64,000 nucleotides of DNA. Origin: Escherichia phage RB49. This document shows positions 12,373 to 26,070 of this stretch, in pieces. Position 1 is the first letter of the stretch; each line of letters opens with the position of its first letter. Made by a program: the position numbers and the translations under genes. The notes under the pieces are model-generated. The model saw only the letters and a list, made by a program, of their open reading frames with translations. It searched no databases and was not told the origin of the DNA. The DNA lies in sequence record NC_005066.1; one strand, written 5' to 3'.

Positions 12373-14424
12373 TTACATTTTAAATTTATCTGGCATTGCG
12401 TCTACAGATACCAGATCAGCGATAAGCTGACGTAGAGTTGCCTTATCTGCTTTCTTACGTTCGGTTTTAGCTTCGCTAATGAAGCTGGAGAAAGACAGGT
12501 CAGAAGCAGGTTTAACAACACCTTCACGGATGAATGCATCACCGTCCGCGATCATCTCGCCAGATTCTTGTAATGCTGCCAGTTCATTTTTGTTCATAAT
12601 ATGTGCCTCAATGTAATAAGTTTCTTGTGAATCCGTCGATGCCGTAGCACGAGTTACCGTATCAAAGGATAACACAACACCGCGAGGAAGTAAAATCTCG
12701 CATTCTTTGTAAGCAAATGCTTTGTTACCTACTGGCAAGACAGGGATGTTTTCCGCGCCAGCAATGGAGAAAGCAACATTGGCGCCACCTTCACCGCGAG
12801 AGCCAGCCATAGAATCAACACCAGCAACGGCACTAGCCACGTTTGCATTCCAGCCGCCAAAAATGTTAGGTGCAAGGGAAGTGCTCACATAGTTTTTAAA
12901 GTAAAACGCTTTTTGCTTACGTGCAGTTTCCCACATTTGCGACCGGAAGTCCATACCACGATACAGAATAGTACCCGGATCAAGTTTAACGCCATAGTTG
13001 GAGAAGGCATTATCCAGTGCATCGCACATCTTGACCAATTCTTCTGGATCTGATATGCCTTCAAACTCTTCCAGCTTGCGGTCGGTTAGGAAGTTGTTCA
13101 TATTGATGTATGCTGCATCGGCATATTCGCTCAACACAAAACCTTCCGCGCCTGGCAGATCAAGATCAATATCTGCCATCATTTCACCCATGTTGCTAGC
13201 AATTGCTTCAAACATACCGGAAGCAACATTACGTAGGGCATCGGTTTTAATCTGGGTGATATGACTACGCAGCATTTCAGCTTTTACATCTGCTGGCATA
13301 GACTGGTCTACTCGATCCATTGCCAGGGCGGTGATCTTGTTTTCGAATACTTCCTCGCTCATGATTTCTTTTAAGCGTTTGACCGAGGCTGCGATAACTT
13401 CCGCAGACAACGGATCATATTGATCCTGAACTTTTACCAGTTCGCTTACTGCGTATTTTGCATCGGCTTCGCTTTCAAAAATAGTACGCATGAAACCATA
13501 GCGAGTGATAATATCACTTGTCCAGTCATTCAGAGAACGGGCGGTTGAACGTTCTAAGGCTTGACGGTCAATCAGAGTATTAAACTGTTTCTTAGGTTCG
13601 GCTTCGGTGATATCTTCTTCCGGTTTAAGATTAATTTTTTCTGGATGATTCACATAGTCGCTGTTATAGGTCGCTTGAGTTTTCAGCATTTCTTCTTTAG
13701 TCAAACGAGATTTAGCCGCTACGCGTTGTTCTGCTTCCGCGTTTCGTTCTTCTTCTGACACAAGACTAGCCGCATACGCTTCATCTTTAGTCAGAGATTC
13801 ACCAGTAGCCTTAGATACCCAGCGATCACCTAAATCACTTTCTACTTTAGTGAACAAGGATTCATCAAGTTTAATCCCTTTAATCTTATCAATCGCCATC
13901 CCGCGACGCTTGACAACAACTAAAGCGATCTTTTTGCTGGTCATTACTTCCTGCTGGAATACTTCAAACTTCGGTGTACGACGCACCAAACGCTCTATAA
14001 CGCGCTTAACCAGTTCGGTCTTACCTTTCATGCGGGATACGTTAAAACGGAACATAACAGCGTCTAATTGCGATTTACGGGCTGTTTCCATAACCACATC
14101 AAAAGCACTTGCCATGACTGCAATCGGGTTATCGCCTAGACCATTTTTAAGCTGTACAATACGACCGCTTTTGTTCATTTCGCACAGTACAACATGTGCG
14201 GTCTTGTCACCCATACGAATGATTTTAGGTGTTTTGTTGGTGAAGTTACAAAGACGGACAATCACATCTTTATCGCGTGTCTGTACTGCAAAAAGCTGTT
14301 TAGGATTCTGCTTAGGCTTTAAGCACTGTACCGGAGCAATACTGCCAAAGTTTTCTTCCTCTTCCGTCAACAGCCATTTCTCGAAAGATTCAATCATTAG
14401 ATCGTCGATTTCTAAGTTAAACAT
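12373..14424 (-). CDS. alt: Alt RNA polymerase ADP-ribosyltransferase
   Basis: 683 aa (T4 Alt 682); YRGMDF, FKNYVSTSLAPNIFGGW, ECEILLPRG. Confidence 0.9.
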   Translation of the reverse strand: MFNLEIDDLMIESFEKWLLTEEEENFGSIAPVQCLKPKQNPKQLFAVQTRDKDVIVRLCNFTNKTPKIIRMGDKTAHVVLCEMNKSGRIVQLKNGLGDNPIAVMASAFDVVMETARKSQLDAVMFRFNVSRMKGKTELVKRVIERLVRRTPKFEVFQQEVMTSKKIALVVVKRRGMAIDKIKGIKLDESLFTKVESDLGDRWVSKATGESLTKDEAYAASLVSEEERNAEAEQRVAAKSRLTKEEMLKTQATYNSDYVNHPEKINLKPEEDITEAEPKKQFNTLIDRQALERSTARSLNDWTSDIITRYGFMRTIFESEADAKYAVSELVKVQDQYDPLSAEVIAASVKRLKEIMSEEVFENKITALAMDRVDQSMPADVKAEMLRSHITQIKTDALRNVASGMFEAIASNMGEMMADIDLDLPGAEGFVLSEYADAAYINMNNFLTDRKLEEFEGISDPEELVKMCDALDNAFSNYGVKLDPGTILYRGMDFRSQMWETARKQKAFYFKNYVSTSLAPNIFGGWNANVASAVAGVDSMAGSRGEGGANVAFSIAGAENIPVLPVGNKAFAYKECEILLPRGVVLSFDTVTRATASTDSQETYYIEAHIMNKNELAALQESGEMIADGDAFIREGVVKPASDLSFSSFISEAKTERKKADKATLRQLIADLVSVDAMPDKFKM

Positions 14425-15542: not shown

Positions 15543-15872
15543 TTATAGTCTCCTGAATGGATCATCACGTAAATCAATATCTTTTAAGAACTCATCCCAT
15601 GAATGGCGGATATTGTTCTTAATTCTCCAGATAAGAGCAGGGATTGAACGCTCTCCCATCTGGAAGTATGGATCATATGATCCGTATGCCCAATATGCTA
15701 CTACAATTCCACAATCAGCGCAATAGTATTCTATTTCACTTGCTGGCGACCAAAGTCCATCAATATGATCGGTGATCTTGCTTTCGATGTTATGGCTATG
15801 ACAATCAGGGCAACGGATGCAATGACCTTGTTTATCGTAATTTGACGTTAGCGAATACTTAAACAATCTCAT
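15543..15872 (-). CDS. Zn-ribbon protein (109 aa)
   Basis: CIRCPDCHSH ... CADCG cysteine pairs; TAATG overlap with upstream gene. Confidence 0.6.
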   Translation of the reverse strand: MRLFKYSLTSNYDKQGHCIRCPDCHSHNIESKITDHIDGLWSPASEIEYYCADCGIVVAYWAYGSYDPYFQMGERSIPALIWRIKNNIRHSWDEFLKDIDLRDDPFRRL

Positions 15873-16588
15873 TATAGATCCTTATTTGCTTCAAATACTG
15901 CCTTTGCGAATCCTCGCGGGGTAAGTGACCTGATAGTCTTTGTTTTCGTTCCTTTCCCGCCTAGCTTAGAATGCTGTTTACTGTACCCTTTATTAATCTG
16001 CAAAGGTTTCTTTTCTGGCATTATAAAGCCTTGTCCGGTCCATAAGCAAGTCTTTTTCGGGTACATATCACGGGCGGCAATATACTCAGGAAAAGTAGGA
16101 TGTTTATCATCTTCCGGCAAATAACCGCCATATTCCCACGGATGGAACATATAATCAGGCTTACGCCACATGCTAGAGATAACGCTTACAGGATTCTCTA
16201 TCATGTAGGGAACTCCTATCCATTCACCCAAATAAGCGGTTATTTTAGCTGCCCTTACATCATGAACTTGAATCAATGGTCCTTGTTCTAGTTTCTTTCG
16301 TTCAAAGTGCGCAGCGCCACTAACAGCTAAATTGGTGCACGGTGGGAATGCAAAGATAATATCCGGTTTCCCCCATTCAAGGTCCATTGCTCTTTCCAGC
16401 CAGTTCAAATCAATCCAGGTGTTTACATAGGTAATGTTTGGATGTTCAAATCTGGTATTATATTTTTTGTATGTACCGTGGTCGCCATCGTCAGCATTAA
16501 AGCAGATCACCTTATGACCCGCTTTAGCCCATTCTAACCCCATTATCCCCGACCCGTCAAAGTTGCAGAATATTAATTTTTGTTTCAT
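15872..16588 (-). CDS. C5-cytosine DNA methyltransferase-like protein (238 aa, short)
   Basis: Motif I-like FCNFDGSGIMG..AG, motif IV-like FAFPPCTNLAVSGA, motif VI-like MIENPV. Confidence 0.55.
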   Translation of the reverse strand: MKQKLIFCNFDGSGIMGLEWAKAGHKVICFNADDGDHGTYKKYNTRFEHPNITYVNTWIDLNWLERAMDLEWGKPDIIFAFPPCTNLAVSGAAHFERKKLEQGPLIQVHDVRAAKITAYLGEWIGVPYMIENPVSVISSMWRKPDYMFHPWEYGGYLPEDDKHPTFPEYIAARDMYPKKTCLWTGQGFIMPEKKPLQINKGYSKQHSKLGGKGTKTKTIRSLTPRGFAKAVFEANKDL

Positions 16589-17078: not shown

Positions 17079-17158
17079 TGTTTGATTCTCCTAAGTGGTA
17101 TCTCGTCTTGATGGTTGTATTGTAGGGGAGTTATCCTCCCCTGTCAACACTTTTTATA
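17079..17158 (-). promoter_or_regulatory. PeSL-like early promoter cassette
   Basis: gattctcctaagtggtatctcgtcttgatgg...GGGGAGttatcCTCCCC tgtcaacac. Confidence 0.65.
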
Positions 17159-17161
17159 AAA

Positions 17162-17329
17162 TTATTTGTTAATTTCTGGTGCGTTGCTAGGATAGTAACC
17201 TTCTTTAACTCCGAGGTATTTCGCAACCATCCCTACAATCTTCTGTGCTACTACAATGTCAAATTTCAGATAATCTTCGCCGTGGGTTTCAACGATATAT
17301 GCTTCACATGCTGCTTTAGTCTCGAACAT
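17162..17329 (-). CDS. small protein (55 aa), paralog of 21488..21655
   Basis: MFETKAACEAYIVETHGEDYLKFDIVVAQKIVGMVAKYLGVKEGYYPSNAPEINK; ~85-90% nt identity to second copy. Confidence 0.65.
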   Translation of the reverse strand: MFETKAACEAYIVETHGEDYLKFDIVVAQKIVGMVAKYLGVKEGYYPSNAPEINK

Positions 17330-17400
17330 TTTGATTCTCCTATTTCGTTTCGGTATGTGTGTATTATAGGGGATCTCCCGATCCCCGTCAACAACTTTTT
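17330..17400 (-). promoter_or_regulatory. PeSL-like early promoter cassette
   Basis: ttgattctcc...tcgtttcggtatgtgtgtattat AGGGGATCtcccGATCCCC gtcaacaactttttt. Confidence 0.65.
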
Positions 17401-17404
17401 TAGA

Positions 17405-17881
17405 TTATTTGCACCACACTGTAATTTTCTTATCATGTTGGTAGTGAATCCATCGAATATCATCTTTATCAATCATGACAGTAACATACCCATTTACTAG
17501 TGATTTGTCAAAACGGTTATGTAACAGTGCAATATATTGAAAGAATGGTTCTTTTGTATTTGAATATATTCCCTTACCATCAAACGTCATGACATTTTTG
17601 TGAACTTTAAATTCATTACGAAGAACAGCCGTCATTGTCCCGTCTTCATTAGTTTTGAGTTTTAATTCGGATTCTTTGTAAAAATATGCGTCACGGGCTT
17701 TACTTTCTTCCCCGTCTTGTACTCTTACTTCACTAGCATAATCACACTGATAGGTCTTATCTACATTTTCGATCTTTTCTTGTGTCATATCAAAAAGCGG
17801 TGCGACCTTTTTCTTGGCCGCGTGTGCTACGTTGGTCATGGACAGTGCTGCAACAACCGCAATAGCAATAATCTTCTTCAT
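17405..17881 (-). CDS. secreted protein (158 aa) with signal peptide
   Basis: N-terminal MKKIIAIAVVAALSMTNVAHA signal sequence. Confidence 0.6.
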   Translation of the reverse strand: MKKIIAIAVVAALSMTNVAHAAKKKVAPLFDMTQEKIENVDKTYQCDYASEVRVQDGEESKARDAYFYKESELKLKTNEDGTMTAVLRNEFKVHKNVMTFDGKGIYSNTKEPFFQYIALLHNRFDKSLVNGYVTVMIDKDDIRWIHYQHDKKITVWCK

Positions 17882-17946
17882 AGTATTCTCCTTTTGTTTT
17901 GTGTTGGGAGTATCTTAGCGACACTCCCGTTATTTTTCAAATCTTT
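17882..17946 (-). promoter_or_regulatory. PeSL-like variant (stem-loop GGGAGTATCTTAGCGACACTCCC, no canonical TTGACA)
   Basis: SD-complement ggagaata plus hairpin in intergenic region. Confidence 0.35.
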
Positions 17947-18228
17947 TTATTCGTGATTAGTTTCGATGTTGTGCATTTTGCACCAGTTCAACCAATCGCC
18001 CAGATCTTGATAGTTGATGCTTTTATCTGCTGCCATCGTTTTTGTCTTGATACCCATATGTGCGTTATGAGTAAGCATTTTTACAGTGAACTCAATTTTA
18101 TCACCTTTAGCTTTAACATCAACCAGTTTGGTCCACTGGCTACCAGCGCCGCGAATGTTCATACCAACGATGTTTCCGATGTATGCTTCTTTGTTTTTCA
18201 GGATTTCGGTTGCTTTGATGAATTTCAT
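17947..18228 (-). CDS. small protein (93 aa)
   Basis: Track ORF preceded by PeSL. Confidence 0.55.
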   Translation of the reverse strand: MKFIKATEILKNKEAYIGNIVGMNIRGAGSQWTKLVDVKAKGDKIEFTVKMLTHNAHMGIKTKTMAADKSINYQDLGDWLNWCKMHNIETNHE

Positions 18229-18297
18229 TTTTGATTCTCCAGTTCGTTTCGGTATGGGTGTATTATGCTATGTTCTTACTTTGGTGTCAACAACTTT
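18229..18297 (-). promoter_or_regulatory. PeSL-like early promoter cassette
   Basis: tttgattctcc...gtttcggtatgggtgtattat...gtgtcaacaactttttt. Confidence 0.65.
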
Positions 18298-18567
18298 TTA
18301 GATATTTTCAGAAATAAATTTTAAAACTTGACGTAAATGTTTCTCATCTTTGATAGTCGCCGGAAGTTCTTCTTTTACTTCCTGTGCAAGATAGATATTT
18401 CCGTTCCAAGTGAAAGATCCGTCTTCGTTTACGCGATAGCTGAACATCCACTCGCAATCATTTTCGATTTCATATACACACAGAAGGGTGTAATCGTTAA
18501 AGCTAGTGATTTCAAGGTCGAAGCCGTGACGTTTTGCAAAGTTGGTAGTGGTTTTAGTCAGTGCCAT
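18298..18567 (-). CDS. small protein (89 aa)
   Basis: Track ORF preceded by PeSL. Confidence 0.55.
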   Translation of the reverse strand: MALTKTTTNFAKRHGFDLEITSFNDYTLLCVYEIENDCEWMFSYRVNEDGSFTWNGNIYLAQEVKEELPATIKDEKHLRQVLKFISENI

Positions 18568-18650
18568 TGTTTGATTCTCCTAAGTGGTATCTCGTCTTGA
18601 TGGGTGTATTATGCTATAGTCGTGATCTGGTGTCAACAACTTTTTTAAAT
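18568..18650 (-). promoter_or_regulatory. PeSL-like early promoter cassette
   Basis: Shares 31-nt gattctcctaagtggtatctcgtcttgatgg with cassette at 17079; tgtcaacaactttttt. Confidence 0.65.
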
Positions 18651-18658
18651 TTTTGGAA

Positions 18659-18689
18659 ATAAAAAAGCCGACACTAAGGTCGGCACATT
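18659..18689 (-). terminator. intrinsic terminator
   Basis: GCCGAC-actaag-GTCGGC hairpin; T6 on minus strand. Confidence 0.7.
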
Positions 18690-19001
18690 TTAAAAATTCT
18701 TGCTATATATGCAAGCCTCATAATCTAGAGGATGACCGCCAATCCTACCAGGCTTAATATTCCAACCGCATCGATATTTTCTGACCATGCTAACCGTTTC
18801 GGTTCTTAGAGCATTTCTTTGCAAATCATACCCCCTAAATTCTTGTCTATAAGGACAGTCCGCTTTGCAAGTTGGCGGTTCTACGTCATTTAGCGGGTCG
18901 GAAGCAGTTGGCTTTATTATCAATTCTTTGTTTGCAATAATCATAAGCACATCCCATTGAAGACAATTTAACATCTTCGCAATAAGTGTTGAATCCGTCA
19001 A
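18690..19001 (-). CDS. Cys-rich protein; overlaps upstream ORF by 116 nt, probably starts at internal ATG or is joined by frameshift
   Basis: Track ORF begins at TTG; internal ATGs at ~18974 and ~18944. Confidence 0.35.
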   Translation of the reverse strand: MTDSTLIAKMLNCLQWDVLMIIANKELIIKPTASDPLNDVEPPTCKADCPYRQEFRGYDLQRNALRTETVSMVRKYRCGWNIKPGRIGGHPLDYEACIYSKNF

Positions 19002-19077
19002 ATACGATCACTTCGTATTTGACTCCATCAGCGATAGCTTTTACTTTATACCATCCATGCTTGTATAAAATCTTCAT
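18886..19077 (-). CDS. small Cys-rich protein (63 aa)
   Basis: ATG with GAGGAAA RBS directly after PeSL. Confidence 0.5.
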   Translation of the reverse strand: MKILYKHGWYKVKAIADGVKYEVIVFDGFNTYCEDVKLSSMGCAYDYCKQRIDNKANCFRPAK

Positions 19078-19150
19078 CTTTATTTCCTCAATCTCGTTTC
19101 GATGGGTGTATTATGCTATAGGCTAGACCAGGTTGTCAACAACTTTTTTA
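19078..19150 (-). promoter_or_regulatory. PeSL-like early promoter cassette
   Basis: tcgtttcgatgggtgtattatgctat...ttgtcaacaactttttta. Confidence 0.65.
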
Positions 19151-19162
19151 ATTTTTTGGGAA

Positions 19163-19190
19163 ATAAAAAAGCCGACGCTAAGGTCGGCTA
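19163..19190 (-). terminator. intrinsic terminator
   Basis: GCCGACgctaagGTCGGC hairpin with T7 on minus strand. Confidence 0.7.
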
Positions 19191-19196
19191 ATAAAA

Positions 19197-19505
19197 TCAT
19201 TTGGACAAATAATCATTCTGTGCAATCCGGTCGGCGTATGCTGGTGTTATGTCAATCGCCAGCACTTTAACGCGTGCTTTCTTGCGACCTGGGTTTTCTC
19301 GTAACCAGTGCTCATGACCGTGAACATTTTTATACTTTGATGCTTCTTCAAATGTACGGATCGGACCTGGGTAATCAGCGTAAAGGATCTCTAGGTCTTC
19401 GGTGATGTAAAAATATACATCGTAATTACTGTTCTCTAGTTTAAGCAGAGAGTTGCGAAATTGTGGTAAATTCTCGCGGGTAAATTCAACTACAAGATTT
19501 TTCAT
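19197..19505 (-). CDS. H-x-H-W family small protein (member 1)
   Basis: HGHEHW ... VLAIDI motif shared with five neighbouring ORFs. Confidence 0.6.
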   Translation of the reverse strand: MKNLVVEFTRENLPQFRNSLLKLENSNYDVYFYITEDLEILYADYPGPIRTFEEASKYKNVHGHEHWLRENPGRKKARVKVLAIDITPAYADRIAQNDYLSK

Positions 19506-19529
19506 AGTGATATCCTCATTCAGATAGAT

Positions 19530-19552
19530 TAAAAGGGGCTTAACGCCCCCCG
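19530..19552 (-). terminator. intrinsic terminator
   Basis: GGGGC-ttaac-GCCCC hairpin followed by T4 on minus strand. Confidence 0.5.
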
Positions 19553-19556
19553 TATA

Positions 19557-19844
19557 TTAAAACAGTCCTTCCTGTACACCGTAGTAGAGTTCGTCACTGA
19601 TAATTTCATTAATGCGACGGTGTGCATATTCCTGATTTGCGAAGTTATCAGCAAGTTCTACTTTAGTTTCGCCGTCATGAGTCCATTTAGTGATAACTTT
19701 ACCATCTGCAAATTTGAAGTTGAACTCTTTAGCTACTGCATCGCGTACCAGACGTGCGAACTTGTTGTTACGGATGGCATTATCGGTTTCGTGTGCAGCG
19801 TGAGCGAATTTGTTAACTTTCAGAGTGATAGTAATGTATGCCAT
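19557..19844 (-). CDS. small protein (95 aa)
   Basis: Track ORF preceded by PeSL. Confidence 0.55.
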   Translation of the reverse strand: MAYITITLKVNKFAHAAHETDNAIRNNKFARLVRDAVAKEFNFKFADGKVITKWTHDGETKVELADNFANQEYAHRRINEIISDELYYGVQEGLF

Positions 19845-19925
19845 AATTTGATTCTCCTAGTTAGAAAGTGTATCTCGTTTCGATGGGGATATTATGCTAT
19901 ATCCCCGATCCGGTGTCAACACTTT
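19845..19925 (-). promoter_or_regulatory. PeSL-like early promoter cassette
   Basis: aatttgattctcc...tcgtttcgatggggatattat...GGGGATattatgctatATCCCC...gtgtcaacac. Confidence 0.65.
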
Positions 19926-20219
19926 TTATAAAATAATTTTTTGATATTTTTCTATGATGTTTGTGTAGGTCACGTCAACCGCTAGCACCGTTGCTTCGAA
20001 TCCACCGTTTAGCCAATGGCTATGATCATGATCGTGAAAGAAACCTAGACCAGTACGAAGACCTTCTTTATATTCTGCGCGTACATTCAGTTTGTCGTCG
20101 ATAAACAGATAAAACCATGAATTTTTACTAGGATTGATGATACAACCTTTCAGATTAGGAAGAATATCACGACTAAGAATAAACTTATCACCTACTTTGA
20201 ACATAATATTAGTCCTCAC
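19926..20219 (-). CDS. H-x-H-W family small protein (member 2)
   Basis: HDHDHSHW ... VLAVDV. Confidence 0.6.
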   Translation of the reverse strand: MRTNIMFKVGDKFILSRDILPNLKGCIINPSKNSWFYLFIDDKLNVRAEYKEGLRTGLGFFHDHDHSHWLNGGFEATVLAVDVTYTNIIEKYQKIIL

Positions 20220-20529
20220 TTATAAGGTCAAACCAATTGTTTTTCGCATAATGCTTAATGCGTGCTTGATCTGCTTCCGCTGGTGATAGATTCCATGCAA
20301 CCACTACAACTTCTGACGCATCGTCATCCGTTTCTGATACCCAATGATTGTGATTCATACAGTTATTTGCTATCGAGTGAGCAAATGATTTCATCACTGG
20401 AGACGTATAATCATAGTAACGGATTTTCAGATTTTCATCAACGTACAAGTAGATCGTATACGGCTTATATTCAGTAACCAGTAACAGACAGTTACGCAAT
20501 TCTGGGAAAATCTTTTTAGTTAATTTCAT
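20209..20529 (-). CDS. H-x-H-W family small protein (member 3)
   Basis: NHNHW motif; N-terminus parallels member 1; start at ATG with GAGGA RBS. Confidence 0.55.
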   Translation of the reverse strand: MKLTKKIFPELRNCLLLVTEYKPYTIYLYVDENLKIRYYDYTSPVMKSFAHSIANNCMNHNHWVSETDDDASEVVVVAWNLSPAEADQARIKHYAKNNWFDLISED

Positions 20530-20530
20530 T

Positions 20531-20749
20531 TTATAATCCTCGGTCTCGGCTATAGTACACGGTACGCCATACAATTTCATGTTTCGTGTCGCTCCAGCAC
20601 ACGATCTCATTTACTCTTAAATCTTTGTTATCAACAAAAGATGAACATTGTGACGCTTCTTTCATCATTTTATCTGCTGTTTTCTCATCAAATACAGCAC
20701 AGATTTCTTTATACACTCGATAATCTTTGAATTGACTCTGAATACCCAT
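20531..20749 (-). CDS. small protein, tandem paralog A (KMMKEASQC motif)
   Basis: FKDYRVYKEI...KMMKEASQCSSF parallels next ORF; start moved to internal ATG. Confidence 0.5.
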   Translation of the reverse strand: MGIQSQFKDYRVYKEICAVFDEKTADKMMKEASQCSSFVDNKDLRVNEIVCWSDTKHEIVWRTVYYSRDRGL

Positions 20750-20972
20750 AATTAACACCATTCCAACCAATTGTTTTTGAGAAAACGTTTATCCACTGTT
20801 GAGTGTAGCATGTTTCTTTCCATGATACAATACGAGTGGAATAATGGTTTTTGTTTCCAGAAAAGGACGGGCATTTTGATGCATCTTCCATCATCTTTTC
20901 GGCGAACTCTGGTGCGTATACTCGCAGGATCTGTTGATATGCTTTGTATTCTTTAAATTTGCTCATAATCAT
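20709..20972 (-). CDS. small protein, tandem paralog B (KMMEDASKC motif)
   Basis: KFKEYKAYQQIL...KMMEDASKCPSF. Confidence 0.5.
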   Translation of the reverse strand: MIMSKFKEYKAYQQILRVYAPEFAEKMMEDASKCPSFSGNKNHYSTRIVSWKETCYTQQWINVFSKTIGWNGVNYGYSESIQRLSSV

Positions 20973-21231
20973 TCACTACCTTATCAGCTTCTTTTGTTGT
21001 TTTTACATCAACTGCGATAACTCGTAAAGGTTCGTCATGGTTCCACCAGTGGTCATGAATATCAGCTTGTGATTTATCACCAAAGGAATCACGAATATCA
21101 TTTTTACATTTATAGCTAATGTGACCTTCATAGTCAACATAAAGGTAATTATCGAAAATCGGCGTTTTTAAGATCATACCGAAAAATCTTTCTTTGTGTG
21201 TCTTATCCAGCGTTGCAGTAATTCGCATCAT
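20953..21231 (-). CDS. H-x-H-W family small protein (member 4)
   Basis: DIHDHWW ... VIAVDV. Confidence 0.6.
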   Translation of the reverse strand: MMRITATLDKTHKERFFGMILKTPIFDNYLYVDYEGHISYKCKNDIRDSFGDKSQADIHDHWWNHDEPLRVIAVDVKTTKEADKVVNDYEQI

Positions 21232-21243
21232 AATATATTCCTC

Positions 21244-21423
21244 TTAGAAAGGGATGGTCATTTCTTGAGCTTGTACATTCTCGTTAGGATTAAACTTCAT
21301 CCAGCCGATATTGTCTACCAGCATATGCACATTTTTATCATATCCTACGTGAGTAGTCAACACTAAATGTGCTTTACCTTCAATGATGAGTTCCATGTAC
21401 TTCTGAACTTCGATAGCTTTCAT
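21244..21423 (-). CDS. small protein (59 aa)
   Basis: Hand-found ORF MKAIEVQKYMELIIEGKAHLVL... directly after PeSL. Confidence 0.5.
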   Translation of the reverse strand: MKAIEVQKYMELIIEGKAHLVLTTHVGYDKNVHMLVDNIGWMKFNPNENVQAQEMTIPF

Positions 21424-21487
21424 TTTGATTCTCCGTTTGTTGTCTTGATGGGAGTATCTTACTACTCCATTTAATCATTGTCAACTA
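21424..21487 (-). promoter_or_regulatory. PeSL-like early promoter cassette
   Basis: gattctccgtttgttgtcttgatgGGAGTAtcttacTACTCC...ttgtcaactat. Confidence 0.6.
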
Positions 21488-21655
21488 TTATTTGTTAATT
21501 TCTGGTGCGTTGCTCGGATAGTAACCTTCTTTAACACCTAGATATTTTGCAACCATTCCGGTGATCTTCTGTGCTACTACGATATCGAATTTCAGGTAGT
21601 CTTCACCGTGGTTTGCTACAATGTATGCTTCGCATTCTGCTTTAGTCTGGAACAT
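21488..21655 (-). CDS. small protein (55 aa), paralog of 17162..17329
   Basis: MFQTKAECEAYIVANHGEDYLKFDIVVAQKITGMVAKYLGVKEGYYPSNAPEINK; track ORF is extended into the PeSL. Confidence 0.65.
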   Translation of the reverse strand: MFQTKAECEAYIVANHGEDYLKFDIVVAQKITGMVAKYLGVKEGYYPSNAPEINK

Positions 21656-21723
21656 TTTTGATTCTCCTATATCTCGTTGGTATGTGTGCATTATAGGGGA
21701 TCACCGATCCCCTGTCAACAACT
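21656..21723 (-). promoter_or_regulatory. PeSL-like early promoter cassette
   Basis: tttgattctcc...AGGGGATCaccGATCCCCT gtcaacaacttt. Confidence 0.65.
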
Positions 21724-22017
21724 TTATAATGCTTTATATGCGTATTTCATAAATTTGTCTGCCACTTCATTGGCATGTTCAGATTCTACGCCTGATTCGA
21801 GAACAATAGCTAGGTCGGTTTCGTCATTCCCGCCGTACCAATGATTTGATGTTCGATTTTTTTCAATTGGAAATTGGTCACTTTTATCTGTGCGACAAAA
21901 TACATCTAAATGCTCGTCGATGTAAAAGATCCAATCTTCATAAAGAATAACGGTATTAGCAAGATTTTTATTGCCTTCAACGAAAGGTTCCGCGACAAAT
22001 AGCTTAGTTTGTTCCAT
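21724..22017 (-). CDS. H-x-H-W family small protein (member 5, divergent)
   Basis: NHWYGG...AIVLESG; start at ATG with GAGGAAA RBS. Confidence 0.5.
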   Translation of the reverse strand: MEQTKLFVAEPFVEGNKNLANTVILYEDWIFYIDEHLDVFCRTDKSDQFPIEKNRTSNHWYGGNDETDLAIVLESGVESEHANEVADKFMKYAYKAL

Positions 22018-22033
22018 AGTAATTTCCTCAAAA

Positions 22034-22225
22034 TTATACAGTTTCGTAAACTTCCCAATGTTCAGCGCCAACACGCTTAACGAAAAGGTTTTCTTTGATG
22101 TTATTCATAAACGTCTGGATGGATTTAATGCGGTTTGAAGGTTTCCATTCTTCGTTGGCATTGCGTCGATACATCATAACATTACCAGTTCGCTTATATT
22201 CAGCAACCATTTTAAGACCACACAT
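22034..22225 (-). CDS. small protein (63 aa)
   Basis: Track ORF, GAGGA RBS. Confidence 0.5.
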   Translation of the reverse strand: MCGLKMVAEYKRTGNVMMYRRNANEEWKPSNRIKSIQTFMNNIKENLFVKRVGAEHWEVYETV

Positions 22226-22282
22226 AATATTATCCTCAATTTGTGGGAGAGTATTACCCCTCCCAATGATTGTTATGTTATA

Positions 22283-22603
22283 TCACACAAAATGGCGTGT
22301 CAATGCTTCTTTTGCGGTTCCGCTAAGACTTTCAATCTCGCCTGGCATAACATCAACCGCCAGAACTTCTACAACATCCTCGGACCCTAACCAGTGAGTA
22401 TGGCCTTTGTAGAACTTGATAACCAGACCACCTTCCTCGTCCCATTTAACGCTATCGCTAGCCCACCACACATCACCGTCGATAAAGTTGATGTAAAGCA
22501 CACTACGCCACATTGAATTAATTACTTTCAATACTGCGCCTTTCATCTCTTCCACGGTATGGTCTTCCATTTTGAAGACCTCACCTACCTGAACTTTTGC
22601 CAT
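22283..22603 (-). CDS. H-x-H-W family small protein (member 6)
   Basis: GHTHWLGSEDVVEVLAVDV. Confidence 0.6.
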   Translation of the reverse strand: MAKVQVGEVFKMEDHTVEEMKGAVLKVINSMWRSVLYINFIDGDVWWASDSVKWDEEGGLVIKFYKGHTHWLGSEDVVEVLAVDVMPGEIESLSGTAKEALTRHFV

Positions 22604-22620
22604 TTAGTCACCTCTCTTTA

Positions 22621-22800
22621 TTACATAACAATCACGCCAGCCGTTGAAAGTTGATGTTTCAACTGAGCATTTTCTGCTACCGTCAAATCAATGATTTCTT
22701 GTGACGCTGCAATCATATAGCCATTGGTGATATTGTTTTGCATCAGTTCAATGGTTTCTTCGTTGTAGCGGATTTTAGCGATGATTTCGTTGAAGTTCAT
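22621..22800 (-). CDS. small protein (59 aa)
   Basis: MNFNEIIAKIRYNEE...; track ORF is extended into the PeSL. Confidence 0.55.
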   Translation of the reverse strand: MNFNEIIAKIRYNEETIELMQNNITNGYMIAASQEIIDLTVAENAQLKHQLSTAGVIVM

Positions 22801-22872
22801 AATTGATTCTCCTAGTTCGTTTCGGTATGTGTGTAGTATAGGGGATCGGTGATCCCCTGTCAACAACTTTTT
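22801..22872 (-). promoter_or_regulatory. PeSL-like early promoter cassette
   Basis: aattgattctcc...tcgtttcggtatgtgtgtagtat AGGGGATCggtGATCCCCT gtcaacaactttttt. Confidence 0.65.
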
Positions 22873-23202
22873 TTAAAGTTTTTCCATGATAACGGTCATA
22901 ATTACATCTTCTGCGCGAGCTGTCAGATTATCAGCGTCAGCATGTGGGCGGTTGGTTGTTACAGAGATAACACCGTTGCGCACTGGTTTGATATTGATAT
23001 CAAGATGATCCGCGAAACGTTCGTGATCCGCGAAACGTTCGCCAGTTACAGAATGAATTTTGGTGTTAAATTCTTTTGCCAGTGCCTTGCGAACTTCACG
23101 AATCAGGATAGCGTTTTTCAGTTGGTTCTCCGCGCTCATGGTCTTCTGGGTGTTCATGGTTCCGTCGAAGTCAATCATTGGCAGCGTTACGATGTATTTC
23201 AT
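22873..23202 (-). CDS. small protein (109 aa) containing in-frame duplication ERFADH-ERFADH
   Basis: Track ORF preceded by PeSL. Confidence 0.55.
   Translation of the reverse strand: MKYIVTLPMIDFDGTMNTQKTMSAENQLKNAILIREVRKALAKEFNTKIHSVTGERFADHERFADHLDINIKPVRNGVISVTTNRPHADADNLTARAEDVIMTVIMEKL
23007..23042. repeat. 18-bp perfect-to-near-perfect tandem duplication inside coding sequence
   Basis: gatccgcgaaacgttcgt / gatccgcgaaacgttcgc, adjacent. Confidence 0.8.
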
Positions 23203-23285
23203 TTTTGATTCTCCGTTTAAGAAAGTGTGTTTCGTTTTGATGTGTGTAGTATAGGGGATACGTGATCCCCTGTCAACAACTTTTT
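23203..23285 (-). promoter_or_regulatory. PeSL-like early promoter cassette
   Basis: ttttgattctcc...AGGGGATacgtGATCCCCT gtcaacaacttttttg. Confidence 0.65.
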
Positions 23286-23289
23286 TGAA

Positions 23290-23634
23290 TTATTTTTTCA
23301 TGAGCTTAATGGCTTCTTCCATAGCCAGCACATTTCGATAGTTAGGGTATCGTGTTAGATCGTCATACATTCGCTTAAGGGTGGAAACTTCCTCAAACTC
23401 TGGGTTTTCTAGATACAGTTGAACAAATTGTTTCTCTACCATCTCTGCTTTTAGCTTGTCTGCTTGTTCCTGTTCATATGATTTAGTTGGACCCAACACC
23501 AACAAAATGATAAAGGTGATCAACGGGCTAATGATCAACGATAGGAGAACATAACCGATAACGCTACGGTTTAAACGGCTTGCGTACATGCCTACTAGGA
23601 AAACAAAAAGGATATAGATAAACAGAAAGAACAT
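23290..23634 (-). CDS. small membrane protein (114 aa, two predicted TM helices)
   Basis: Hydrophobic N-terminal half MFFLFIYILFVFLVG...LLSLIISPLITFIILLVLG. Confidence 0.55.
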   Translation of the reverse strand: MFFLFIYILFVFLVGMYASRLNRSVIGYVLLSLIISPLITFIILLVLGPTKSYEQEQADKLKAEMVEKQFVQLYLENPEFEEVSTLKRMYDDLTRYPNYRNVLAMEEAIKLMKK

Positions 23635-23641
23635 ATAATGG

Positions 23642-24115
23642 TTACTCCTTATTTTCTCGCTCGTACTTTTCGAAATAAAATTCTACTGGCTGGTCATGAA
23701 TTGACAGCAAGCCAAAGCGTTTAGCCGCTCGCAATCCCATATTGCGCTGAATGTACTTCTGGAAGTTCTCGCGTATACACTTACGCCAGTATTCTAAGCC
23801 CATACAGCTTTTATAAAGATTGCATTGCACACACGCCGGATTCATGTTATCAAGTATATCATGTTCCGGTTTATGCATTCCTACAACCTTATACTTCCAC
23901 GATCCATCATCATTACGGGCAATTCGTCCATTTTCATCATAGACTACCTTTGAGCGTCGCAATACTGGTTTGATGTGGTCTGCGTGCCAGCGATCCCCTA
24001 GTTCCTCGCCACAATAGGCACAACGTCCACCATATTTCATTTTCAGGATCTGGCGTTGCTCTTTCTTTGACAATTTTTTAGGTTTAGGGGCTTTCGCCCC
24101 TTCATTATCACACAT
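23642..24115 (-). CDS. HNH endonuclease (157 aa)
   Basis: CAYCGEELGDRWHADHIKP ... NMNPACVQCN: CxxC-HxDH-N-CxxC HNH signature; overlaps 3' end of ligase gene. Confidence 0.75.
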   Translation of the reverse strand: MCDNEGAKAPKPKKLSKKEQRQILKMKYGGRCAYCGEELGDRWHADHIKPVLRRSKVVYDENGRIARNDDGSWKYKVVGMHKPEHDILDNMNPACVQCNLYKSCMGLEYWRKCIRENFQKYIQRNMGLRAAKRFGLLSIHDQPVEFYFEKYERENKE

Positions 24116-25604
24116 CGAATACCTCTTTTACTGTATTTGCAGTGGTCTTGTCGTAGCGAATACGTTTGATGATTGGGAGAAATAAAGAGAACTCCGGTTC
24201 ATCTTCTTTACGTGATTTGCTGCGGATATACCCGTTGCATGTCATCTCAATGACTTTTCCAATCAGGTTATGACGGTCAGTCCATAACATTTCTCGGTCG
24301 AGTTCATTTCGACGATCGAACGGAATTACACGTTCAGTACCATCATCACCTTTTTCGGTTGTAGTGTCGGTTAATCCCGATCCGGTGTTAGTCATCATTC
24401 GTCCGCACGCACTACGGACAGTAAAACCGCCTACCTTATTGGGGTCTTTACTATGCGGATATACATCAACAATTTCCGCGTCGAAGTCAATCACTTCTTT
24501 AAATTTAACCTGATCTTTACTACGGCGATCTTCAAATACACCATGTAAATTTTTAAGGATAATACCTTCTAAGCCCATGTTTACATAGCGATGATATACT
24601 TCGCGAGCTTCATCTATATTGTTAACTACAGTGTTTTCGATTATCTGAACACGAGGATCGTTAAGTTCTTCAACAATCTGTTTTAGTTCTTCGAATCGAT
24701 CTTTATATTGCTTCGTTGCTTTCTCATTTCCGTAATACACATCACGGTCGATAACATCCCAGACAGTATAAACAATACATTGGGCTTCTTCTTTTGGAAT
24801 AGTTCCTTTAAGTGATTTGTTGAGGATACCATTTCCAGTCTGACGGTCTGCAACAACGGATTCTTTCACTGCTTCCGCTACTGGCGTTAATGGCATTTCC
24901 TCTTCTTCAAATATCCATGACAGAGTACCATCATAAACGCTCTCAACGAAGTTCTGCGCTGGTGTTTGCGAAAGGGTAGGCATATATACCAATTCGCCAT
25001 CTAGAACAATTCCACGGCCTCGTAGACGCTCTAAAACCGCAAACAAATCATCAAGCCCTTGATAGGTATTACCTGAGCGGGTATAGATTGCTAATGTTTC
25101 CCCGTCAATATCAGCCATACCACGAGCGCCATCGCTTTTAAGTTGTGCATACGCCGGATATTTGATATTGGCAATGGTCTTATCAGAACATGACGATGCA
25201 AGGTGGCACGGCTGCTGGGGGATCAGTTTCTTCCATACCTTGTTTGCAGTGGTAGCGGAACAACCGCATTCCAGGTCACGATTCAGGACCATCATTGCAA
25301 CTTTAGCATCATCTTCTGACAAGCAAGTCAGAGTATCGGTAACTAGCTGTAATGCTGCATTACCAGTTACTTGACGTGTTGCAAGTTTATTTTTAAAGAC
25401 CTGCAATGCACCGGATAAAGACAATACAGACGAATAGCGAGACGGTTTATCGTATTTCTTTACGCCAAACGTAACCTGTTTGCAATATGCCAGATAAAAG
25501 CATTCTTTCAGCGTTTCATTGCTCGCGGATTCTTTCAGAATCTTTTCTTTCAGCGATGTTTTGTCTGTTGCTGCAAGCTGATTAATGATATTAAGAATTG
25601 ACAT
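24108..25604 (-). CDS. 30: gp30 ATP-dependent DNA ligase
   Basis: Collinear with T4 DNA ligase (KYPAYAQLKSDGAR adenylation motif, RDLECG); track ORF begins at upstream GTG. Confidence 0.95.
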   Translation of the reverse strand: MSILNIINQLAATDKTSLKEKILKESASNETLKECFYLAYCKQVTFGVKKYDKPSRYSSVLSLSGALQVFKNKLATRQVTGNAALQLVTDTLTCLSEDDAKVAMMVLNRDLECGCSATTANKVWKKLIPQQPCHLASSCSDKTIANIKYPAYAQLKSDGARGMADIDGETLAIYTRSGNTYQGLDDLFAVLERLRGRGIVLDGELVYMPTLSQTPAQNFVESVYDGTLSWIFEEEEMPLTPVAEAVKESVVADRQTGNGILNKSLKGTIPKEEAQCIVYTVWDVIDRDVYYGNEKATKQYKDRFEELKQIVEELNDPRVQIIENTVVNNIDEAREVYHRYVNMGLEGIILKNLHGVFEDRRSKDQVKFKEVIDFDAEIVDVYPHSKDPNKVGGFTVRSACGRMMTNTGSGLTDTTTEKGDDGTERVIPFDRRNELDREMLWTDRHNLIGKVIEMTCNGYIRSKSRKEDEPEFSLFLPIIKRIRYDKTTANTVKEVFDV

Positions 25605-26070
25605 TTTCACCTCGTTTTGTTAAACGTTCACGAATATCATTGAGGATACTACAAAATTCCGATTCAGTCAATATAGTCTTTAACGGATCAGTTCCACCTA
25701 TGCTATGACGTAATTTCTTATTTCCGGTCGCGAGTAATGCTTTACAAAATTCTGGGTTATTCCGTGCCATCGTAACAAATGCCAGATGTACCAGTCTGTA
25801 ATAATGCTCACTCATTCGATGAATCGGGCGACCCTGAAAATATAACATGTGATTCTCAATCTTTTCAGTTCTTCCGGTTCTTTTTGCTTTGCCGCCGTGC
25901 ATCAAAAAGATTTCTCTTTGTCTCTGAGGGTTCTTAAATCTTAGCCCCTGTAAAAATCCTTCTGTGCTGTTAATATCGCAACCAAATAGACGGAATGGTC
26001 TTTTATTGAAATTACTCAATTCACCCGATGGATAAGGTCCACCCGCATAGATATCAATTTCAGAAGTCAT
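25591..26070 (-). CDS. NADAR (YbiA/DUF1768)-like protein
   Basis: LSNF..., STEGFLQGLRF, LLATGNKKL..GG pattern consistent with NADAR domain (from memory of family consensus). Confidence 0.5.
   Translation of the reverse strand: MTSEIDIYAGGPYPSGELSNFNKRPFRLFGCDINSTEGFLQGLRFKNPQRQREIFLMHGGKAKRTGRTEKIENHMLYFQGRPIHRMSEHYYRLVHLAFVTMARNNPEFCKALLATGNKKLRHSIGGTDPLKTILTESEFCSILNDIRERLTKRGENVNS

Follow-up and report, generated by a model that had tools for sequence, protein, structure and literature searches.

Six anciently diverged paralogs of one lineage-specific HxHW domain in the hyperplastic region of Escherichia phage RB49

Introduction

T4-like phages carry hundreds of small early ORFans, whose functions are the main unknown in phage-host biology. 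In Escherichia phage RB49, Arbiol et al. 2010 (PMC2839356) described ORF184-212 as non-essential ORFans that form a hyperplastic region rich in promoter-early stem-loop (PeSL) cassettes, and the PeSL-flanked ORFans of RB49 and phi1 are also treated by Comeau et al. 2014 (PMC4122927). The present work concerns a 64,000-nucleotide stretch of RB49 (NC_005066.1; hereafter the window) and, within it, six small open reading frames (ORFs) on the minus strand at 19197-22603. They lie in the same ORF184-212 region, among the same cassettes, and the small-ORF pool of such PeSL regions reappears shuffled in related phages, as was published for the ORFans. A term search of PMC2839356 and of the 2006 five-genome comparison (PMC1524935) returned no mention of paralogy among these ORFs, and we found no paper on these genes or on anti-defence in Krischvirus.

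A second described system is the amplification of genes in T-even phages, which has been documented as a way of multiplying anti-defence genes (PMC9391042, PMC13096335). A first-pass annotation of the window had read the six ORFs in a comparable light, as a local paralog family sharing an H-x-H-W motif and diversified by selection in a host-interaction or anti-defence role. We report here that the six genes are anciently diverged paralogs of a single lineage-specific domain, nearly confined to RB49-like phages, and that they are real genes constrained by purifying selection.

Results

The six ORFs and their shared motifs

The six ORFs were confirmed by translation, with the motifs first quoted for them, and all lie on the minus strand. 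They are called A to F here, with residue numbering after member A:

19197-19505, minus strand: member A, 102 amino acids (aa), identical to RB49 ORF197c; motif HGHEHW ... VKVLAIDI; phrog_9345
19926-20204, minus strand: member B, 92 aa, RB49 ORF199; motif HDHDHSHW ... TVLAVDV; phrog_17255, with a cross-match to phrog_9345
20209-20529, minus strand: member C, 106 aa, RB49 ORF200; motif NHNHW ... VVVVAWNL; its closest paralog is A
20953-21231, minus strand: member D, 92 aa, RB49 ORF203; motif IHDHWW ... RVIAVDV; phrog_15972
21724-22017, minus strand: member E, 97 aa, RB49 ORF206; motif TSNHW ... AIVLESGV; the most divergent member; phrog_15965
22283-22603, minus strand: member F, 106 aa, RB49 ORF208; motif GHTHW ... 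EVLAVDV; phrog_16486

Every residue of A, B, C, E and F is the same as in RB49 ORF197c, p199, p200, p206 and p208, and every residue of D is the same as in RB49 protein Q7Y3K3, which was equated with ORF203 by position; the annotated record of Phi1 confirmed the ORF numbering. In every record examined, the six genes bear the label 'hypothetical protein'. A Shine-Dalgarno-like sequence is found 5-9 nucleotides (nt) upstream of each ORF. For B, the ORF itself stood, but its first-assigned GTG start at 20219 is probably wrong: this codon probably sits 15 nt too far upstream, and the start is most likely the ATG at 20204 (MFKVGDK..., 92 aa), since all database orthologues begin there and GAGGA lies upstream.

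The H-x-H-W motif is shared as proposed, with one exception. H66 and W67 are the sole invariant residues among 27 diverse members and H64 is conserved in at least 90% of them, although in the window E reads TSNHW, with Ser replacing H64, where its orthologues have THNHW. Of the histidines, only the HxH pair is shared across the family; the longer runs in A, B and D are specific to their subfamilies. As for the V-L-A-V-D-V strand, its character is conserved whereas its sequence is not (C has VVVAWNL and E has AIVLESGV). A [YF]-L-Y-I-D-x-x-L-x-V hairpin, a hydrophobic strand of the pattern V-x-V-[LI]-A-x-[DN]-V and a helix cap, P-x-E-A-D, also recur.

Evidence for paralogy

Identity between the six paralogs is only 20-33%, and the pairwise BLASTP scores are 54 bits for A-C, 29 bits for A-F and B-D, and about 26-27 bits for B-F. 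In a leave-one-out test, hidden Markov models (HMMs) of five members were searched against all 604 stop-to-stop ORFs of the window, and the omitted member was always the best non-training match, with E-values of 3e-14 (A), 6e-8 (B), 1e-12 (C), 4e-7 (D), 5.6e-4 (E) and 8e-7 (F); the next match had an E-value of at least 0.015. A profile of the E subfamily, built with metagenomic intermediates, aligned with the other five subfamilies at an hhalign probability of 98.1% (E-value 6.6e-14, 73 columns). Leave-one-out HMMs and hhalign thus establish the local paralog family that had been proposed. Moreover, BFVD models of the paralogs resemble the model of member A structurally, with template modelling (TM) scores of 0.69-0.77.

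PHROGs contains the six proteins as full-length members (E-values 1e-48 to 4e-72) of phrog_9345 (A and C), phrog_17255, phrog_15972, phrog_15965 and phrog_16486, all five labelled 'unknown function'. It keeps them as separate families linked by weak cross-matches, with E lacking any cross-match. At the level of profile comparison, all six and their metagenomic relatives unite into one HxHW superfamily in which the five PHROGs are merged.

No seventh member was detectable in the window by the family HMM. Some Krischvirus genomes carry, directly upstream of the F orthologue, an 88-aa gene that may be a degenerate seventh member (JSE, L010 2354-2617; G2248, L009 2193-2459; not in the RB49 window). 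It has the family layout (IIYVTEDDVYAIW ... HPGNGHLI ... VHLLAHSV) but no HxHW, and its HMM support is marginal (E-value about 0.1); the BFVD model C4MZ33, of an 88-aa JSE protein that is probably the product of this gene, matches at an E-value of 1e-2.

Protein fold and search for known relatives

The proteins have about 95 residues, are soluble and neutral to acidic (isoelectric point 4.5-6.9) and have N-termini that are not hydrophobic; no signal peptide or membrane segment was found in any of the six. An AlphaFold2 model of A, from a 25-sequence alignment, reached a predicted local distance difference test score (pLDDT) of 82 and a predicted TM score of 0.79, with the lowest confidence at residues 50-70. 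Strands are predicted at residues 5-7, 19-23, 30-34, 40-44 and 78-83 and helices at 13-16, 52-59, 64-68 (the HxHW helix) and 88-100, giving a compact alpha/beta fold of the order beta-alpha-beta-beta-beta-alpha-alpha-beta-alpha. The N-terminal halves, noticed at first pass as beta-strand-like, are indeed predicted as strands in this model. Variability within orthogroups is confined to the extreme N-terminus and to two segments flanking HxHW, while the sheet and the C-terminal helix are fixed.

Pfam, NCBIfam and PADLOC gave no match for the six proteins and none that was consistent among the 27 members: no Pfam-A or NCBIfam family was matched by more than three of the 27, and all matches were far under the cut-offs. 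A known housekeeping domain was looked for in Pfam and NCBIfam and none was found. A PDB sequence search with the family profile returned two matches only (E-values about 0.7-0.9), and a PDB structure search with the model of A returned no significant match. As modelled, the fold of the domain appears new.

Several more specific relationships were considered and rejected. One source labels the B orthologue P0072 as 'KOW2-KOW3 of Spt5', which is unsupported, as there was no match to a KOW profile or to an SH3-like barrel. The Pfam family T4_Y03C was matched by one of the 27 members at an E-value of 0.1, which is chance level, and known anti-defence sponge or inhibitor folds (e.g. Tad2, AcrIIA7) showed no significant similarity of fold or sequence. 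Proteins of the metallo-beta-lactamase superfamily have an HxHxDH motif and an alpha-beta/beta-alpha sandwich of more than 200 aa; this superfamily was ruled out, there being no Lactamase_B match and no significant structural score. The T4 internal proteins IPI, IPII and IPIII are expressed late and carry an N-terminal capsid-targeting leader that is cut by the prohead protease. The N-termini of the six proteins are mutually unrelated and unlike this leader, their promoters are of the sigma-70 type, and the family HMM finds nothing in T4.

Distribution and origin

The region 19000-23000 aligns to 57 genomes of Krischvirus (RB49-like, Straboviridae) at 92-97% nucleotide identity. A word-indexed search of 5.8 billion protein clusters gave 89 matches, each an orthologue of one of the six genes with at least 54% identity, on contigs of phage size (163-176 kilobases, kb). 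When 1.84 billion representatives at 50% identity were searched exhaustively with HMMER, only 19 proteins had an E-value of 0.001 or below, all from Krischvirus or a few metagenomic T4-like relatives; of the 12 that were new, ten are more distant members and two are near variants of E and F. A repeat profile search yielded mainly A orthologues and one further protein. Searched by tblastn against cultured phages, the distant members matched in Krischvirus only, and a six-frame whole-genome HMM scan of T4 gave no homologue (best E-value 0.099, in a non-coding frame). In T4, the 62-aa alt.1 is the sole gene between alt and gene 30.

Two metagenomic contigs are informative about the age of the family. 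L004 (20 kb), from a T4-like phage whose baseplate genes have about 75% nucleotide identity to those of Krischvirus, carries two E-like genes between DNA ligase/HNH and alt, among PeSL-like promoters. The genes on L002 (2.1 kb; SRR8048117_15661) follow the order ORF209-like, F-like, ORF204-like, B-B fusion, D-like, C-like. The fusion, P0090 (L002 823-1434), is a natural 203-aa tandem of two B-like domains flanked by the F-, D- and C-like genes. Copy number across phages thus ranges from two up to at least five or six. The neighbour pairs ORF209->F and ORF201/202->C are kept in the distant contigs L002 and L003. Judged from these contigs, the subfamilies are older than the split from the distant metagenomic lineages, because L002 and L004 already carry them, and the diversification is therefore ancient. 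The array probably originated by old tandem duplications followed by PeSL-mediated shuffling.

ORF201 (20531-20749) and ORF202 (20709-20966) are themselves adjacent, overlapping paralogs between D and C (39% identity, E-value 8e-15), and their homologues adjoin C-like genes in the distant contigs L003 and L004.

Selection and allelic turnover

Pooled ratios of nonsynonymous to synonymous differences (pN/pS; Nei-Gojobori) between the window and five other Krischvirus genomes were 0.27 for A, 0.07 for B, 0.26 for C, 0.15 for D, 0.30 for E and 0.13 for F; neighbouring non-family ORFs gave 0.00-0.60 in the same five-genome comparison. When the genes were split into segments, with Phi1 added (six genomes), pN/pS was 0.28 in the loops around HxHW and 0.20 elsewhere, and the loops of no gene exceeded 0.37. 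A scan with the family HMM found all six members in the fixed order F-E-D-C-B-A in five other Krischvirus genomes. The diversifying selection suggested at first pass was not borne out, because the orthologues evolve under purifying selection in every gene and in the loops, the orthogroups are kept in order and the paralogs are old.

Some members nevertheless differ between genomes. The C allele of JSE is only distantly related to that of RB49 (nonsynonymous divergence, dN, of 0.38), and alternative D alleles have only 54-56% identity. The A orthologue is frameshifted in JSE (L010 5470-5858) and truncated in kvi (P0068), and the E orthologue is N-terminally truncated in JSE (L010 3207-3501). 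Unless they are sequencing errors, these disruptions of A and E suggest that the phage can do without single members.

Promoters, operons and neighbouring genes

On one side alt (12373-14424) and on the other the HNH/ligase genes (23642-25610) border the stretch of about 9 kb in which the family genes lie. Nine to ten PeSL cassettes of 70-100 nt are found on the minus strand at 17100-23306. They comprise TTGACA, a G/C-rich GGGGATC..GATCCCC hairpin and a TATAAT-like hexamer, then a conserved GGAGAATCAA ribosome-binding site, and match the published RB49 elements. The PeSL repeat families D1 and D2 have 7 and 4 copies with a 17-nt hexamer spacing. Read in frame, the PeSL gives a recurring 'HTYRNE.GES' pseudo-peptide that opens several of the listed ORFs. 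The elements next to the family genes are:

22816-22893, minus strand: PeSL cassette, TTGACA-17-TATACT with a GGGGATC..GATCCCC stem between the hexamers; putative early promoter of ORF209-F-ORF207-E
21653-21725, minus strand: PeSL206/205 cassette, directly downstream of E, with a perfect TTGACA-17-TATAAT at 21690-21718
21456-21484, minus strand: promoter-like site, TTGACA-17-TAAGAT; putative promoter of ORF204-D-ORF202-ORF201-C-B
21423-21464: partial PeSL repeat D5, overlapping the promoter-like site
19872-19949, minus strand: PeSL cassette, TTGACA-17-CATAAT; putative promoter of ORF198-A
19170-19189, minus strand: intrinsic-terminator-like hairpin with a T-run, directly after member A

From promoters, hairpins and gene spacing, we infer three short early operons, ORF209-F-ORF207-E, ORF204-D-ORF202-ORF201-C-B and ORF198-A. 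The PeSL206/205 stem-loop probably ends the F/E operon, and the promoter of this cassette probably drives ORF205. This promoter was shown to be strong in a lacZ fusion, and terminator activity was shown for the hairpin of PeSL211/210 (PMC2839356). No family member directly follows a PeSL as first gene; each comes second or later in its operon. Their proteins are presumably made in the first minutes of infection, since the genes appear to be read from sigma-70-type PeSL early promoters. Rfam and tRNA scans found no RNA genes in the 16-25 kb interval.

Other genes of the region were noted in passing. A 172-nt direct repeat with 86% identity (17161-17332 and 21487-21658) carries the 55-aa ORF191 (17162-17329) and ORF205 (21488-21655), each directly downstream of a PeSL; the two proteins are 91% identical, and this duplication is much more recent than the HxHW family. 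A paralogy of ORF198 and ORF210 suggested by eye was unsupported by BLAST. A 158-aa ORF at 17405-17881 (minus strand), with a signal-peptide-like N-terminus (MKKIIAIAVVAALSMTNVAHA), is not found at the corresponding position of Phi1 and is probably the RB49-specific ORF192, which was used for PeSL mini-circle experiments (PMC2839356). Between ORF210 and the HNH gene lies a 114-aa ORF (23290-23634, minus strand) that is absent from Phi1 and whose N-terminal half is strongly hydrophobic. Its position identifies it as RB49 ORF211, for which homology to an ORF of a Vibrio fischeri superintegron has been described (PMC2839356). Upstream of the family region, a 238-aa ORF at 15872-16588 (minus strand) matches by position genes annotated as DNA (cytosine-5) methyltransferase in related phages.

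Discussion

What the six proteins do can be proposed only tentatively. Our best inference, held with less than even confidence, is that they are early binder proteins that have subfunctionalised, with targets in the host or its defences. The HxHW on its short helix and the adjacent variable loops would form a binding face that contacts a partner, and the paralogs would have become subfunctionalised toward different host or host-defence targets, making up a set of binders for host takeover or anti-defence. Possibly the domain works as a dimer, as the natural two-domain fusion P0090 hints. A host-interaction or anti-defence role, as the first-pass annotation had it, is a plausible candidate that fits the non-essential, presumably early-transcribed hyperplastic location. 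Several points weigh against such a binder set. Variability concentrated in loops is typical of any globular protein and does not by itself indicate a binding face, and the loops carry no arms-race signature, because their pN/pS is 0.28. Moreover, the tandem fusion is a single metagenomic observation whose single-sequence model has a pLDDT of 34, and the early transcription of these operons is itself read from promoter-like sequence.

The histidines were also thought at first pass to be possible metal binders, and it is conceivable, although rather unlikely, that a metal or small-molecule site is the essential activity of these small proteins. In that case HxH, possibly together with acidic residues where the last strand ends (xDV) and the last helix begins (EAD), would coordinate a metal ion or a nucleotide-like molecule, for example in an immune-signal sponge or a mini-enzyme, and two domains might complete the site, for which the natural fusion offers a precedent. 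The invariance or near-invariance of HxHW across the 27 members would be expected of such a site, as would the extra adjoining His of subfamilies A, B and D and the frequent Asp of xDV and EAD helix cap. However, the putative acidic ligands vary, being N in C and G both in E and in some of the D alleles; B and F lack EAD; and E of the window has one His at the motif. The motif is also without the D-H of HxHxDH and without a preceding strand, about 95 aa are too small for a metallo-beta-lactamase fold, and neither Pfam Lactamase_B nor any other family was matched consistently by the 27 members at an E-value up to 1.

A more elaborate proposal, which we regard as unlikely, is that a small new fold dimerises, as a homo- or heterodimer prefigured by the natural fusion, around a pocket lined by HxHW that would hold a metal or an immune signal derived from a nucleotide, in which case the array would be a multi-specificity anti-defence sponge or inhibitor battery unique to the RB49 lineage.

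Alternatively, the proteins might modulate processes of the phage itself, as adaptor or chaperone-like subunits for enzymes encoded nearby, such as the Alt/Mod ADP-ribosyltransferases, DNA ligase, the HNH endonuclease or the DNA methyltransferase. The constant position of the family between alt and gene 30 in Krischvirus, and likewise in the distant L004, would agree with this, as would the neighbour pairs kept in L002 and L003 and the purifying selection on all six members. We nevertheless hold it to be distinctly unlikely. Because alt, mod and ligase occur in T4 and other T4-like phages that lack the family, no conserved phage enzyme depends on it; viable phages exist in which individual members are disrupted; and the region is described as a dumping ground for unrelated ORFans (PMC2839356), so that co-location carries little weight.

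Still less credence can be given to the idea that the family is in an arms race with host factors or defences, under diversifying selection that is still going on. Six copies that have diverged to such low identity in a hyperplastic early region, with allelic replacement at some members (the JSE C allele, the D alleles) and variability within orthogroups concentrated beside the conserved motif, are what such a conflict might leave. Yet the pooled pN/pS values are low and similar to those of neighbouring non-family ORFs, the loops give 0.28 overall and no more than 0.37 in any gene, the split from the distant metagenomic relatives is younger than the subfamilies, and gene order is fixed across the genus. 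Finally, chance similarity of motifs or non-coding ORFs, to which the weak BLAST matches of E to individual members (E-values of 0.13-0.7 even in a six-sequence database) might have pointed, is already refuted by the leave-one-out HMMs and hhalign, by pN/pS well under 1, by the ribosome-binding site before each gene, and by the confident AlphaFold2 fold to which the BFVD models of the paralogs correspond.

Whatever their role, five supposedly unrelated hypothetical families become a single ancient domain, retained in six copies, with a signature of two to three residues and its own confident predicted fold, and six anonymous genes become one tractable target. Should the binding of host or defence proteins be true, a new fold would be added to the anti-defence or host-takeover repertoire, together with a case of old, stable subfunctionalisation within a region known for rapid shuffling. 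Should the proteins be inert, they would be one more lineage-specific ORFan family.

Compared with known systems, the HxHW domain is less than half the size of metallo-beta-lactamase superfamily proteins, with no D-H after the motif and none of their other ligand motifs. From the other PeSL ORFans its members differ in never being the first gene behind a PeSL. No relationship of sequence or fold was found with characterised T-even takeover or anti-defence proteins, which the family is nonetheless like in being small, soluble, non-essential, presumably early and encoded in a variable region. By analogy, amplification of the T-even type could have seeded an array such as this one; in contrast to the amplified anti-defence loci described in those reports, the HxHW copies are ancient and diverged rather than recent amplifications. 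Thus, as a kind, an early accessory paralog family in the hyperplastic region of a T4-like phage is ordinary, whereas the family itself is newly unified and uncharacterised.

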